Sequence record: PQ741806.1
DNA: 64,000 bases
Direction: 5' to 3' (one strand)
Source of the DNA: Pseudomonas phage Pa_AttikonH10
Every line of letters starts with the position of its first letter. The stretch's first letter is position 1. A model generated the notes under the pieces. That model worked only from the letters and a program-made list of their open reading frames with translations. It made no database searches and was not told where the DNA came from. This document shows, piece after piece, positions 51,641 to 54,224 of the stretch. Position numbers and translations under genes: made by a program.

Positions 51641-52423
51641 TTATTTTCTATGTGCTGCAACTTTACCATCCATTAGGTTATAAACTTCTTGAATGGTTTT
51701 AGGTGACCCATCTTTGTTATAAAAAATAGATGGGTTTGCCTGAGCTTCTTTTGGGAAATGGGTAGCAGCTAATTCATTCTGACCAGTGGTCAAGAAACGA
51801 CGCGCTGCACCAGGTCCAAAGAAGTGAGCTAAATAAAGATCAGTATCAGTTGGTTCACGTTTAAGGACGGGTCGAAGAATATTCATATTCTCTTTAATGA
51901 GTTCGGCACCCATTAAAGCACTTATACGTGGATCTTTACGTAATGCACCTGTTGGATCAGTAATTACGCCATACTTCATGCCATAGTTTTCAATCATTGT
52001 TTTCCATGTTCCAGTAAGGAATTGGAACCAACCAGTAGCTGATGAAGTCTTAGCTTTTATTTCGTAATCGAATGCTGATTCAATAGAAGCAAATGTTAAT
52101 AGCAACTGGCTACGAACACCAGTAGCATTTTCTACTGCATTCATAACTGGAGTTGCAGCTGCACGTGATTTATTTGCAGTTGGCATAGGGATAGTTTTAT
52201 AAGGAATAGGTGGGGAATATTTACTGAATAATTCAGCCCAAGTATTCTTACCTACAATACCATCACTATCCAGACAATTATCTTTTTGAAATTTAACTAC
52301 CTGATTAAAGGTATTATTTCCAAAAATACCATCTGGCTTTCCAACATCATAGCCACATAGATTTAATAGTGTCTGGAGTTGACATACCTCATCACCCCTA
52401 TCGCCTTTGCGTAATACTTTCAT
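51641..52423 (-). CDS. endolysin: N-terminal peptidoglycan-binding domain plus C-terminal lytic transglycosylase (phiKZ gp144 / KZ144-type), 260 aa
   Basis: PG_binding_1-like N-terminus ([60 protein letters not shown]). Catalytic block ESAFDYE...[10 protein letters not shown]...[15 protein letters not shown]. Both the length and the sequence agree with my recollection of KZ144. Confidence 0.9.
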
Positions 52424-52442
52424 GATATAACCTCTACATATT

Positions 52443-52464
52443 AACCCAGTATGAACCCTGGGTT
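52443..52464. other. intergenic hairpin AACCCAG - loop - CTGGGTT between the endolysin gene and its upstream neighbour
   Basis: 7-bp stem with no U-tract. Possible RNA structure or attenuator. Confidence 0.3.
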
Positions 52465-52484
52465 AGGTTCATTGAGGGTATTAC

Positions 52485-53018
52485 TTAACTTTCTAGATAA
52501 CGGATTTGACCATTTTCTAGATAACGTGCTGCGCCATTCTCTAATAGCCGGATAGTATCTGATGTATCATCAATACGTTGAATTAGTATATTACATTCGC
52601 CATAGTAAGCATAACTACTCGACATAGCTACTATCGTGTATGGAACAACATCCGTAGTTGCATTGATTGGTGTTGTATCAAATGAAACATCATCTGGTCC
52701 AAGCTTCCAACCCCGTGAACGGTTGATTTCTTCAGCAATTGCTTTAGGTGTTAAAGTACCAACTATCTTAAGGATAGATCCTTCACCAATAGCTCGTGGA
52801 TCAGCAAAATCTAACCGACGGTAAGTTAACATGTACTTAATGTCAGTAGTAATGTCGATCATTTCAATAAATGTACGTCCAGGCTCAATCGTGGTTGGAC
52901 TAAAAAACATATCTTCAAATGTAACTGTTTCTGGTTTGAAGTTTATTTTTAAATCATCCCGCGCAAGTTTTACTAGCGCGTCCCTCGATGCCATGTCATA
53001 CGGAAAGATATCCTGCAT
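52485..53018 (-). CDS. hypothetical protein, 177 aa (in the lysis-cassette neighbourhood; no TM segment)
   Basis: ORF. No hydrophobic segment. Confidence 0.55.
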   Translation of the reverse strand: MQDIFPYDMASRDALVKLARDDLKINFKPETVTFEDMFFSPTTIEPGRTFIEMIDITTDIKYMLTYRRLDFADPRAIGEGSILKIVGTLTPKAIAEEINRSRGWKLGPDDVSFDTTPINATTDVVPYTIVAMSSSYAYYGECNILIQRIDDTSDTIRLLENGAARYLENGQIRYLES

Positions 53019-53065
53019 GTCAAACCTCTATAGTGGTAAAATGTTTAATCCACATAGCATTATAA

Positions 53066-53090
53066 AGCCTTCCTCTTGAAGAGGAAGGCT
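53066..53090. terminator. strong hairpin AGCCTTCCTC-TTGAA-GAGGAAGGCT (10-bp stem), T-rich on its plus-strand side
   Basis: Seen directly. Lies between two minus-strand genes. Confidence 0.55.
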
Positions 53091-53100
53091 ATTATAGTTT

Positions 53101-53496
53101 TTATTGCATAAGCATCTTTATTAATTCAAAGGTACCTTGCACAATAGTCTTTAACACATTGGCACTTTCTTCTGACATAGGTGCACCAGATAAAACTACC
53201 ATAGTAGATACTGATGCCCCAATAAGAGTAACACCACCAGCTAATACTAATACCGCATTACGGTAAGAATCTTTAGCCTTCACTTCAGCAATTTCCCGGC
53301 TGAGAATTTTATATTGAAGATCTGAATCAGTAATAGCATAAATTCGACTAAGTACTTCTTCACCAGTTATACTTAGATTTATACGTTGTTCCTTTTCCAA
53401 TACGCTATTTAAATAGGTACGTATCTTCTTTCCATAGTCTTTAGAAGAAGATAAAGGATTACCATCGATCTCAATCAGAACGTCCTCTAGGGTCAT
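53101..53496 (-). CDS. membrane protein with a C-terminal TM segment, ~131 aa (candidate holin or lysis regulator)
   Basis: GGAG RBS 8 nt upstream of the ATG at 53496 (MTLEDV). Hydrophobic segment AVLVLAGGVTLIGASVSTMVVLSG near the C-terminus. Adjacent to the spanin genes. Confidence 0.45.
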   Translation of the reverse strand: MTLEDVLIEIDGNPLSSSKDYGKKIRTYLNSVLEKEQRINLSITGEEVLSRIYAITDSDLQYKILSREIAEVKAKDSYRNAVLVLAGGVTLIGASVSTMVVLSGAPMSEESANVLKTIVQGTFELIKMLMQ

Positions 53497-53833
53497 GACT
53501 ATTCTCCAAATTACGTTGACGTTCGTTCCATTCACGCAATTTGTCTACTTGGATATTACATAGTCCAAGTGCATCAGTTTGTAAAAGCCAATGTTCGGTC
53601 ATAAGTAAGAAACGTGCTTCATTCTCATCAGTAACCCCAACAGCTTTATATCTATCTAATGCATTGATGATCTCATTAGCTGTAGGTGGGGCTTCTACAT
53701 CACAAGGGAGAAGCAAACTACTTGGGATTGCAACTGGTATTTTCACGGGCGGCGGCACAGTAGTGCTCGTACATCCGTTTAGCAATAACATTAATAGACT
53801 TATTAATGCTATCTTTTTTTGTGTCAGTTTCAT
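53471..53833 (-). CDS. o-spanin-like outer-membrane lipoprotein, ~120 aa, start embedded within the i-spanin gene
   Basis: Lipoprotein signal MKLTQKKIALISLLMLLLNG|C from Met36 of the ORF-track ORF. The mature part is proline-rich (TSTTVPPPVKIPVAIPSSLLLPC...) and has additional Cys. Its start codon lies inside the 3' end of 53718..54224 in a different frame. Confidence 0.6.
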   Translation of the reverse strand: MKLTQKKIALISLLMLLLNGCTSTTVPPPVKIPVAIPSSLLLPCDVEAPPTANEIINALDRYKAVGVTDENEARFLLMTEHWLLQTDALGLCNIQVDKLREWNERQRNLENSHDPRGRSD

Positions 53834-54224
53834 GTTTAATCTCAGTAGTGGTACTTTCCCCATTAGTTGTTTTAGCTTTAACCTCAGGCCATACAGGGGG
53901 AGTATATCCACGACCTGATAAACTAATGTACTCATCAATCACCTCAGTGCGTGATTGCGCCTGCTCTTTTTGTATCTCTTTCTTTTTAGTAATTAGTTCA
54001 GCTTGAATTTTATCGGAGATACGGTCTGATTCAATCCTAACCTTTTCTGCCGCTTCATAAGATTTAATTTTTCCAATTAAATCTGTAGAGCGAACAAGTT
54101 CCGTCTCATAACTATTTTTGTAATATATGATACCAATTAAGGCACCTATCAGAATAACTAATAGTAACCATATATGCAATGGCACACTACCAATTATTTT
54201 TCGTATACCTGCTAATAGGAACAT
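53718..54224 (-). CDS. i-spanin-like protein, 168 aa (N-terminal TM plus periplasmic coiled coil)
   Basis: TM segment PLHIWLLLVILIGALIGIIYY at aa ~15-35, then a charged helical domain with two C-terminal Cys. Its 3' end overlaps the lipoprotein gene by ~116 nt, giving an overlapped two-component spanin architecture. Confidence 0.6.
   Translation of the reverse strand: MFLLAGIRKIIGSVPLHIWLLLVILIGALIGIIYYKNSYETELVRSTDLIGKIKSYEAAEKVRIESDRISDKIQAELITKKKEIQKEQAQSRTEVIDEYISLSGRGYTPPVWPEVKAKTTNGESTTTEIKHETDTKKDSINKSINVIAKRMYEHYCAAARENTSCNPK

Follow-up and report, generated by a model that had tools for sequence, protein, structure and literature searches.

The closest described system is the five-gene lysis cassette of phiKZ, which was characterized experimentally in January 2026 (Manohar, Wan, Ganser, Sharp & Young, Sci Rep 2026; PMC12894885), lyses both E. 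coli and P. aeruginosa, and put an end to the idea of holin-independent endolysin export in phiKZ. All functional tests in that work were plasmid-based or performed in lambda/E. coli. As in this cassette, the spanins of P2 (LysB/LysC) and lambda (Rz/Rz1) pair an inner-membrane protein of type-II topology, helical in its periplasmic part, with an outer-membrane lipoprotein, the o-spanin, which is encoded out of frame at the 3′ end of the i-spanin gene. T4 (the class III holin gpt with RI/RIII) and P1 (LydA/LydB) likewise use a holin with a single transmembrane domain (TMD) in N-in/C-out orientation, timed by a dedicated soluble regulator. Kongari 2018 filed the spanins of phiKZ and 201phi2-1 as singleton families; our alignments reveal that they are nonetheless homologous to each other.

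A phiKZ-type lysis cassette

The DNA analyzed here, hereafter the window, is a 64,000-nt stretch of a phiKZ-type jumbo phage. Five ORFs on its minus strand, between positions 51641 and 54224, correspond to PHIKZ141, 141.1, 142, 143, and 144, just as a previous sequence-only reading of this DNA had placed and ordered them. The cassette is 98.1% identical to that of phiKZ at the nucleotide level, with 1–3 amino acid changes per protein, namely (window to phiKZ residue) S139N, V146A, and A159S in gp141, A9T in gp141.1, R51L in gp142, D13N in gp143, and I154L in gp144; Phikzvirus isolates match the region with 100% identity. Gene order, overlaps, the lipobox LNGC(T), and the 120-codon o-spanin start are all shared with phiKZ, strain-level substitutions being the sole differences. 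We are thus highly confident in reading the region as a multigene lysis module of the phiKZ type, made up of two spanins, a holin, a holin regulator, and an endolysin. It is not a new system, since its phiKZ version is the one already known, and the earlier i-spanin, o-spanin, and endolysin assignments agree with the experiments on those near-identical genes (PMC12894885). Reading of the raw sequence had therefore recovered a complete and non-obvious lysis cassette, including its single-TMD holin, together with the decisive experiment.

The arrangement is conserved well beyond phiKZ. The order RuvC-like protein, i-spanin, overlapped lipobox ORF, single-TMD protein, DUF7941 protein, and peptidoglycan-binding endolysin is kept in PhiPA3, 201phi2-1, PS119XW, Noxifer, and RVTF4, which represent five other genera, as well as in two ~230-kb metagenomic contigs. 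Shine-Dalgarno-like GAGG/GGAG motifs precede four of the five cassette starts, and that of gp141.1 is weak (GAG). TnSeq data recorded no insertions in either orf142 or orf144, one low-read insertion in 141/141.1, and five in orf143, which is non-essential by this measure. Another TnSeq preprint (10.64898/2025.12.19.695335) deals with other phages and holds nothing on the cassette genes. The proteins named "gp141" and "gp143" in PMC5694885 are unrelated to those discussed here, as SPN3US gene numbers are used in that paper.

[quoted passage not shown] The holes would then let out gp144; release through gp142 holes was demonstrated for the lambda endolysin R and presumably extends to gp144, a peptidoglycan-binding lytic transglycosylase of established activity and structure that would degrade the wall. 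Meanwhile, gp141, anchored in the inner membrane, and gp141.1, an outer-membrane lipoprotein, would form a periplasm-spanning complex. Once freed by degradation of the wall, this complex would disrupt the outer membrane; membrane fusion, as in the lambda model, is the probable means.

The overlapping spanin genes

The first gene of the cassette encodes gp141 (53718..54224, minus strand; 168 aa), in which a membrane helix is followed by a long periplasmic helix, a flexible linker, a second helix, and a C-terminal YC-x8-C motif. Kyte-Doolittle 19-residue windows scoring ≥1.6 cover residues 7–39, peaking at 2.61 over residues 16–34, and R8 and K9 lie on the N side of this segment. Hence, gp141 is predicted to have a single N-terminal TMD and type-II topology (N-in, C-out), the orientation following from the positive-inside rule. 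A single-sequence AF2 model shows a continuous helix over residues 16–103 (block pLDDT up to 95), disorder at ~104–132, and a further helix at 133–158, so that the N-terminal TM segment of the earlier i-spanin call was recovered, together with a long periplasmic helix. A crude heptad a/d hydrophobicity test on residues 38–103, 45–100, and 133–158 was not significant (1300 of 2000 shuffles did as well); the long helix is therefore a result of this analysis, while the term coiled coil rests on the published prediction of CC1 (PMC12894885). At the family level, gp141 matches PHROG 7584, "Rz-like spanin" (9.9e-69), and, marginally, the general Rz family phrog_214 (E = 0.0011), with no Pfam spanin match. 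Y155, C156, and C165 are invariant across six genera.

The o-spanin precursor gp141.1 (53471..53833, minus strand; 120 aa) combines a signal peptide, the lipobox LNGC (Cys21), a Pro-rich segment, and two further cysteines. The ORF opens with an ATG in the +1 frame relative to gp141 and shares 116 nt with that gene, which bears out the proposed embedding of the o-spanin start in the i-spanin 3′ end; it then runs 247 nt past the gp141 stop to overlap the start of gp142 by 26 nt. At the local base composition, an alternative-frame open stretch of 155 codons has a chance probability of ~1.6e-5. The N-terminus reads MKLTQKK / IALISLLMLLL / NGC (basic n-region, hydrophobic h-region, and lipobox) followed by TSTT, which predicts a lipoprotein with a signal peptidase II signal and without an inner-membrane retention signal. 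LNGC departs from the strict lipobox consensus at position −2; it is nevertheless among the o-spanin lipoboxes listed in Kongari 2018, and the LipoP call for gp141.1 is positive (PMC12894885). With nine prolines and cysteines at residues 44 and 92 in addition to the lipobox Cys at residue 21, every element of the earlier o-spanin description was found. Indeed, gp141.1 belongs to the Rz1-like Pfam family LysC (PF23793; 40.1 bits against a cutoff of 27, E = 3.6e-10, residues 16–59) and matches PHROG 456, "Rz-like spanin" (7.6e-12). C21, C44, and C92 are invariant across six genera, and C44 and C92 may be available in the periplasm, together with C156 and C165 of gp141, for putative intermolecular disulfides.

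A scan for lipoprotein signals in six frames over all 64 kb returned only the gp141.1 ORF and one short embedded ORF. We judged the latter match (25199-25372, minus strand) to be due to chance, since a 232-aa ORF spans it in another frame. Seven diverged relatives also have an overlapped lipobox ORF (LHGC, LAAC, LIGC, LTGC, LNGC, LTAC, and LVAC). Among the five more distant relatives examined, four lack an annotation of the o-spanin gene. The 120-codon start argued for in PMC12894885, on which the sequence-only reading had also settled, is better than either of those on record, since the RefSeq start corresponds to V26, past the lipobox Cys, and that in OR608733 to M15. An incorrect o-spanin start, costing the protein all or most of its signal peptide, is thus given by RefSeq and by one or more GenBank isolate records. 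This start, the unannotated o-spanins, and the label "virion structural protein" carried over for the holin and the regulator are all correctable annotations.

The overlapped architecture of gp141/gp141.1 is that of P2, with conserved periplasmic cysteines. Mature lambda Rz1 is 40 aa long, whereas the mature gp141.1 o-spanin would reach ~100 aa and carries a conserved helical WEARFLLM...C region. The two pairs are functionally interchangeable. PhiKZ 141/141.1, which differ from the window copy by 3 aa and 1 aa, respectively, complement lambda RzamRz1am, while either gene alone fails and leaves spherical cells (PMC12894885); complementation of a lambda Rz/Rz1 amber lysogen, put forward with the sequence-only reading as a check on the pair, had thus been published with a positive outcome.

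The holin, its regulator, and competing readings

The C-terminal-TM protein that had been named as the first holin candidate is gp142 (53101..53496, minus strand; 131 aa), whose phiKZ counterpart was demonstrated to be a holin. It comprises a ~80-aa cytoplasmic domain, one TMD at ~81–103, and a ~28-aa amphipathic periplasmic tail. Hydropathy confirmed a single, C-proximal membrane helix (residues 81–103), with K73, K75, and R80 on its N side and E109 and E110 on its C side, and this charge distribution predicts an N-in/C-out topology. The protein is conserved in six genera, has no Pfam family at E ≤ 0.1, and retrieved only chance matches and no chain of its own from a sequence search of the PDB. 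PhiKZ gp142 complements lambda Sam and behaves as a DNP-triggerable, PMF-sensitive single-TMD holin, published as "class IIIb" (PMC12894885), a class that its authors created because gp142 lacks both gpt homology and a large periplasmic domain. Our comparison agrees, in that gp142 bears no sequence relationship to the gpt family and its large domain is N-terminal and cytoplasmic, with only ~28 aa after the TMD. Accordingly, gp142 works like a holin yet is no member of the gpt family.

The ORF between holin and endolysin encodes gp143 (52485..53018, minus strand; 177 aa), whose N-domain has the DUF7941 fold and whose C-terminal part carries three repeats. It had been noted merely as a soluble protein of 177 aa; soluble it appears to be, with no TMD by hydropathy, but it is not a bystander. 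PhiKZ gp143 advances holin triggering by ~10 min and absence of gene 143 causes a ~15 min delay (PMC12894885). As in T4 and P1, the regulator would bind the soluble domain of the holin, which for gp143 is the likely reading of the available evidence. The large regulatory domain is, however, cytoplasmic in gp142 and periplasmic in T4 gpt, gp143 normally accelerates triggering, unlike the delaying T4 and P1 regulators, and it has a virion-protein (DUF7941) fold, which RI, RIII, and LydB do not. A possible lysis-inhibition-like behavior at high MOI has also been reported for phiKZ (PMC12894885).

This fold raises the alternative that gp143 is a dual-role or repurposed virion-fiber protein, that is, either a part of the peripheral baseplate "filament cloud" that affects the holin incidentally or a link between assembly and lysis timing. 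The window copy scores 18.3 bits against DUF7941 (PF25613), below the cutoff of 27; however, the same profile region is matched in six of six gp143 orthologues (Noxifer at 37 bits against that cutoff, PhiPA3 at 26.2), and a precomputed match exists for 17 of 54 homologues in the databases. Similarly, BLASTP against phiKZ gp126 and gp127 was not significant (E = 0.51 and 3.1), so the relationship is seen at the profile and fold level only, but the confident AF2 model of gp143 (pLDDT 88.6) has PHIKZ127 as its only significant match in the PDB (9xqd_0; E = 6.2e-7, probability 1.00, TM 0.61/0.70) and, in BFVD, resembles 81 virion or tail proteins of jumbo phages. In a Goslar preprint, gp143 is counted among the DUF7941 proteins, a family shown there to form head-to-tail filaments. 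Collectively, these data establish gp143 as a DUF7941-fold member in which only the N-terminal module is shared. This globular fold is common to the chimallivirus peripheral-baseplate/filament proteins (phiKZ gp126/gp127 and Goslar gp22/gp23), and gp143 is restricted to the same phage group, but it differs from them in being short (~177 aa), in lying between holin and endolysin, and in its demonstrated effect on holin timing. The dispensability of the gene in TnSeq would also fit a dual role, as would the three conserved 8-residue repeats at the C-terminus (RLLENGAA/RYLENGQI/RYLES), whose motif is invariant across 39 homologues, with R157, E160, R165, E168, and R173 unchanged.

Other evidence argues for a dedicated regulator. 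The timing effect is exerted in trans in E. coli without any other phage protein and needs the N-terminal domain of the holin (PMC12894885), the position between holin and endolysin is kept even where the endolysin catalytic domain has been swapped, and gp143 is not modeled in the phiKZ virion and goes unnamed in the main text of the phiKZ atlas of 40 proteins (PMC13250141); a sequence search of the PDB returned chance matches only. We therefore regard a dual or repurposed role as unlikely, though worth keeping in mind. A more specific version, which we hold to be decidedly improbable, is that the head-to-tail surface of the family docks either virion assembly partners or the cytoplasmic domain of the holin, so that the pool of free gp143 would report tail/baseplate assembly and act as an assembly-coupled lysis clock.

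A broader objection to the lysis cassette would be that gp141, gp142, and gp143 serve mainly as structural proteins of the virion and that lysis of E. coli is an over-expression artifact of membrane-active or sticky proteins. RefSeq and PHROG do label gp142 and gp143 "virion structural protein", and 201phi2-1 gp226 (the i-spanin homologue), gp227, and gp228 are recorded as "identified as virion protein by mass spectrometry". However, assemblies that are not part of the virion, among them nucleus shell fragments and PhuZ filaments, have been demonstrated in CsCl-purified jumbo-phage preparations, which makes membrane debris with holin and spanins a plausible contaminant. The cassette also sits inside a tail/baseplate block, gp139 being a solved baseplate protein and gp145/146 tail proteins, yet neither gp142 nor gp143 has a PDB chain, and gp141 and gp142 go as unmentioned as gp143 in the main text of the atlas. 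A non-specifically toxic protein would not be expected to rescue two distinct lambda lysis defects with the right timing and DNP triggering, and no virion role is known for paired TMD and lipobox proteins in a spanin arrangement that is shared between genera. Together, these observations render the artifact very improbable.

Finally, it is least probable of all that the real or a second holin is PHIKZ156.1, the small membrane protein at 37815-38105 offered as the other candidate, and we rejected it as unsupported: its 96 aa do include a hydrophobic stretch and end in a charged tail, a lipoprotein encoded downstream is its partner in a conserved pair, and the filtered table holds no disruptive Tn insertions in it, but gp142 alone gives holin function, the five-gene cassette suffices for lysis, and PHIKZ156.1 lies ~14 kb off on the other strand, in a different gene block, has no lysis-family match in Pfam or PHROGs, and shows six insertion sites (4631 reads) in the unfiltered table, while the filtered lack of insertions may reflect a polar effect because the gene is upstream of and co-directional with that for RNase H.

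The endolysin and intergenic hairpins

The endolysin call held, the last gene of the cassette encoding gp144, the KZ144 transglycosylase (51641..52423, minus strand; 260 aa), with an N-terminal PG_binding_1 domain (PF01471, 2.8e-17, residues 9–65) and a C-terminal SLT-type lytic transglycosylase domain (PF01464, 1.8e-5, residues 95–183). It matches the PDB entries 3bkh/3bkv and 9xps_S at ~4e-178 (3bkh_A at 4.2e-178 over the full length), differs from the phiKZ protein by one substitution, and has no TMD by hydropathy. The same protein is also a component of the virion neck (PDB 9XPS), where it forms a six-copy "wedge" (PMC13250141). Because gp144 is a bona fide neck component, the essentiality of orf144 cannot be credited to lysis alone. 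The cassette may thus be more than a lysis module, its soluble products gp143 and gp144 overlapping with virion parts. Neither the neck role of gp144 nor the DUF7941 fold of gp143 is mentioned in the lysis paper (PMC12894885).

The intergenic DNA holds predicted RNA structures. A scan for sigma-70 promoters gave fewer matches than shuffled sequences, a result that is irrelevant here because the phage transcribes its genes with RNA polymerases of its own. For orf143, an upstream TSS has been reported (PMC12676376). Between gp142 and gp143, a palindromic hairpin with an 11-bp stem (53066..53090; AGCCTTCCTCT-TCA-AGAGGAAGGCT) was found, and the RNA of this intergenic region folds at −26.4 kcal/mol (z = −4.67), a stability reached by none of 200 shuffles. 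This predicted hairpin could serve as a terminator, an attenuator, or an RNA stabilizer. Another hairpin predicted at ~52440-52470 is weak (z = −1.68). On the minus strand, 84 nt downstream of the gp144 stop, we also predict a terminator-like hairpin (51538..51557), GAGAGTCC-TTCG-GGACTCTC, followed by TTATGTTGTT.

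The lysis cassette and the roles of its products

Several Phikzvirus isolates match the segment 51400-54900 with 100% identity, and 47 phiKZ-type genomes contain it at an identity of at least 95%. The window runs as the reverse complement of the reference NC_004629, and matching to this record revealed on the minus strand all five ORFs of the lysis cassette proposed in the sequence-only reading, namely PHIKZ141 (gp141; 54224-53718), which differs from its phiKZ counterpart in three residues, and PHIKZ141.1 (gp141.1; 53833-53471), PHIKZ142 (gp142; 53496-53101), PHIKZ143 (gp143; 53018-52485) and PHIKZ144 (gp144; 52423-51641), with one substitution each. 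At the nucleotide level, window and phiKZ cassettes are 98.1% identical across 2584 nt. A tail/baseplate block encloses the cassette (flanks at 54240-55702 upstream and 49066-51435 downstream, both on the minus strand). The upstream neighbors are gp139, a DUF7208 protein solved as a baseplate component (PDB 9XPG/9XQD), and gp140, RuvC-like by a weak Pfam match (E = 0.0063); gp145, downstream, is labeled 'tail sheath' in RefSeq and matched neither Pfam nor PDB entries. The proposed observation is confirmed and its interpretation supported. The cassette is a known kind of system and exactly this locus has already been published, hence it is not novel: the phiKZ spanin pair was catalogued bioinformatically in 2018 (PMC6139136), and the whole cassette was characterized by Manohar et al. 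(Sci Rep, January 2026; PMC12894885).

The 168-aa gp141 carries a strongly hydrophobic N-terminal segment (Kyte-Doolittle maximum 2.61, residues 16-34), and its single-sequence AlphaFold2 model predicts an unbroken helix over residues 16-103 (block pLDDT up to 95), a linker of low confidence (~104-132) and a second helix (133-158). The periplasmic helix scored no better than shuffled sequence in a crude heptad test. Therefore, of the i-spanin features anticipated for this ORF, the N-terminal TM and a long periplasmic helix, followed by linker and second helix, hold, while the coiled coil was not confirmed. gp141 matches its own 'Rz-like spanins' PHROG, and the general one only marginally.

The o-spanin assignment of gp141.1 was borne out in all its sequence elements. 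Translation from the ATG at 53833, which falls within gp141 (+1 frame, 116-nt overlap), yields 120 aa with the N-terminus MKLTQKK-IALISLLMLLL-NGC, in which the Cys of the LNGC lipobox is residue 21, followed by a Pro-rich stretch and additional Cys at positions 44 and 92; at its far end, the gene shares 26 nt with the start of gp142. An alternative-frame open stretch of 155 codons, as found here, has a probability of ~1.6e-5 at the local base composition. When the entire window was scanned in all six frames, lipoprotein-type signals emerged only in this ORF and in one short embedded ORF, the latter considered a chance match. Further, gp141.1 hits the Pfam LysC family (Rz1-like, PF23793) with 40.1 bits (cutoff 27) and a PHROG annotated 'Rz-like spanin'. 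Manohar et al. chose the same 120-codon start and showed that a lambda RzamRz1am lysogen is complemented by 141 together with 141.1 and by neither gene on its own (PMC12894885); this is the complementation envisaged in the sequence-only reading.

The same reading favored the C-terminal-TM protein as the holin, and correctly so. The 131-aa gp142 has one hydrophobic segment (81-103), flanked by Lys/Arg towards the N-terminus and by acidic residues towards the C-terminus, and matches no Pfam family; it complements lambda Sam and is prematurely triggered by DNP (PMC12894885). Hydropathy evidenced no segment of this type in gp143, in keeping with the soluble 177-aa protein described between holin and endolysin genes, nor in gp144. 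The endolysin call also stands, since gp144 contains PG_binding_1 (residues 9-65) and SLT transglycosylase domains and is essentially identical to the crystallized KZ144 enzyme (3BKH). Its wall-binding domain is C-terminal according to the introduction of the lysis paper and at residues 9-65 according to Pfam.

The five genes lyse both E. coli and P. aeruginosa; removal of gene 143 delays lysis by ~15 min, and the holin triggers ~10 min earlier when gp143 is provided in trans, an effect that depends on the holin N-terminal cytoplasmic domain (PMC12894885). In the proposed mechanism, gp142 builds up in the inner membrane and then triggers, gp143 adjusts the trigger via the holin cytoplasmic domain, and gp144 gets out and cleaves murein, three functional claims shown by heterologous complementation. 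Deletions and AlphaFold models suggest a gp142-gp143 contact. The gp141/gp141.1 complex, released from the murein mesh, would then disrupt the outer membrane, presumably by membrane fusion, judging from its likeness to lambda Rz/Rz1.

We also identified a very stable hairpin with an 11-bp palindromic stem between gp142 and gp143 (53066-53090; z = -4.67), a weaker one before gp144 (~52440-52470; z = -1.68) and, after gp144, a terminator-like hairpin with a GC-rich tetraloop and a T-run (51538-51557). Published TSSs map upstream of orf139, orf143 and orf144 (PMC12676376), and the latter two indicate that the cassette is probably transcribed as more than one unit. In the same independent TnSeq study, orf142 and orf144 were free of insertions and orf143 had five, and the filtered table of this study lists one low-read insertion common to 141 and 141.1 (PMC12676376).

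Conservation and annotation of the cassette in relatives

With gp142 as probe, we fetched homologous loci from PhiPA3, 201phi2-1, PS119XW, Noxifer and RVTF4, which represent five other genera at 27-35% identity. Gene order is kept in all five: DUF7208 baseplate protein, RuvC-like, i-spanin-like, single-TMD protein, gp143 homologue and peptidoglycan-binding endolysin. Every locus also holds an ORF that runs across the i-spanin 3' end in another frame and has a hydrophobic leader that ends in a lipobox (LHGC, LAAC, LIGC, LTGC or LNGC). The lipobox Cys, two other Cys and a WEA-x-x-L-x-M core motif are invariant in the o-spanin alignment, as is the C-terminal YC-x8-C motif in that of the i-spanins. 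Aligned holins keep an N-terminal MTLE...P-S motif, the TMD and an amphipathic tail. Distant gp143 homologues further led to two ~230-kb metagenomic contigs with the same arrangement and the lipoboxes LTAC and LVAC. The metagenomic relatives (loci L009, 5550-6837; L010, 5558-7603; and L011) retain spanins, holin and gp143 homologue; their endolysin has PG_binding_1 fused to Muramidase (PF11860) in place of SLT and is preceded by inserted DUF1353 genes, accompanied in some cases by DUF4376.

The start of the o-spanin gene (window 53471-53833, minus strand; 2954-3241 in locus L002 and 5072-5392 in locus L001) is misplaced in public annotations. The RefSeq CDS of 141.1 begins at V26, past the lipobox Cys, and that of OR608733 at M15, so that the targeting signal is lost in both records. 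In four of the five related loci (PhiPA3, 201phi2-1, PS119XW and RVTF4) the gene is unannotated.

Overlap between lysis products and virion components

The sole forward-looking element of this locus is that products of the lysis cassette overlap with components of the virion. Both gp142 and gp143 carry a 'virion structural protein' label in public annotations. The origin of such labels, spread through databases, is the mass-spectrometry annotation of 201phi2-1, in which gp226-gp228 (2360-4059 in locus L004 of this phage), the homologues of i-spanin, holin and regulator, are recorded as 'identified as virion protein by mass spectrometry'. Detection of the i-spanin and holin homologues probably reflects co-purifying membrane debris; comparable virion preparations also contain nucleus-shell fragments and PhuZ filaments, according to the Goslar study of DUF7941 filaments.

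On the other hand, gp144 is a genuine virion part. One chain of PDB 9XPS is designated 'Endolysin gp144', and in the phiKZ structural atlas six copies sit as a wedge between the tail sheath and the whisker collar of the neck, gp34 (PMC13250141). The essentiality of orf144 is therefore not creditable to lysis alone, and its cause in TnSeq may be the neck role instead of lysis.

As for the regulator, the fold of gp143 is that of the DUF7941 N-domain. A match to PF25613 at the same profile region was obtained with all six gp143 orthologues, one of them above threshold, and the domain is precomputed in 17 of 54 database homologues. The gp143 model is confident (pLDDT 88.6); its sole significant PDB match is the solved peripheral-baseplate protein PHIKZ127 (E = 6.2e-7, TM 0.61/0.70), and 81 virion or tail proteins of jumbo phages matched in BFVD. 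In the Goslar preprint, gp143 already figures as a member of the DUF7941 family, which forms head-to-tail filaments at the peripheral baseplate, and no lysis role is mentioned for it; the lysis paper, in turn, mentions neither DUF7941 nor virions (PMC12894885). Collectively, the virion labels and mass-spectrometry detection, the presence of gp144 in the virion and the gp143 fold support the modest, open hypothesis of a repurposed or dual-use virion-family protein as lysis regulator. The gp143 C-terminus (residues ~156-177; 52485-52553, minus strand) comprises three tandem 8-residue repeats (RLLENGAA/RYLENGQI/RYLES) of nearly invariant R-x-x-E-x-G pattern, with R157, E160, R165, E168 and R173 invariant in 39 homologues. 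Modeled as short strands at lower confidence, these repeats may be a docking motif.

A second membrane protein-lipoprotein pair

The alternative holin candidate of the sequence-only reading, at 37815-38105 on the plus strand, is PHIKZ156.1, a membrane protein of 96 aa whose C-terminal helix is charged. The PHIKZ156 ORF begins 8 nt 3' of it, with the likely ATG start 20 nt downstream; the product (38126-38527, plus strand) is a lipoprotein (MSRKFFLILLPLISGC; lipobox LISGC). The two genes adjoin the RNase H gene on its upstream side, and matched no lysis family or any family annotation; the filtered Tn table shows no insertions that disrupt them. The pair is conserved in HHBS36_1 (lipobox LSGC) and other Pseudomonas jumbo phages, and could constitute either a further pair that spans the envelope or a system for exclusion.
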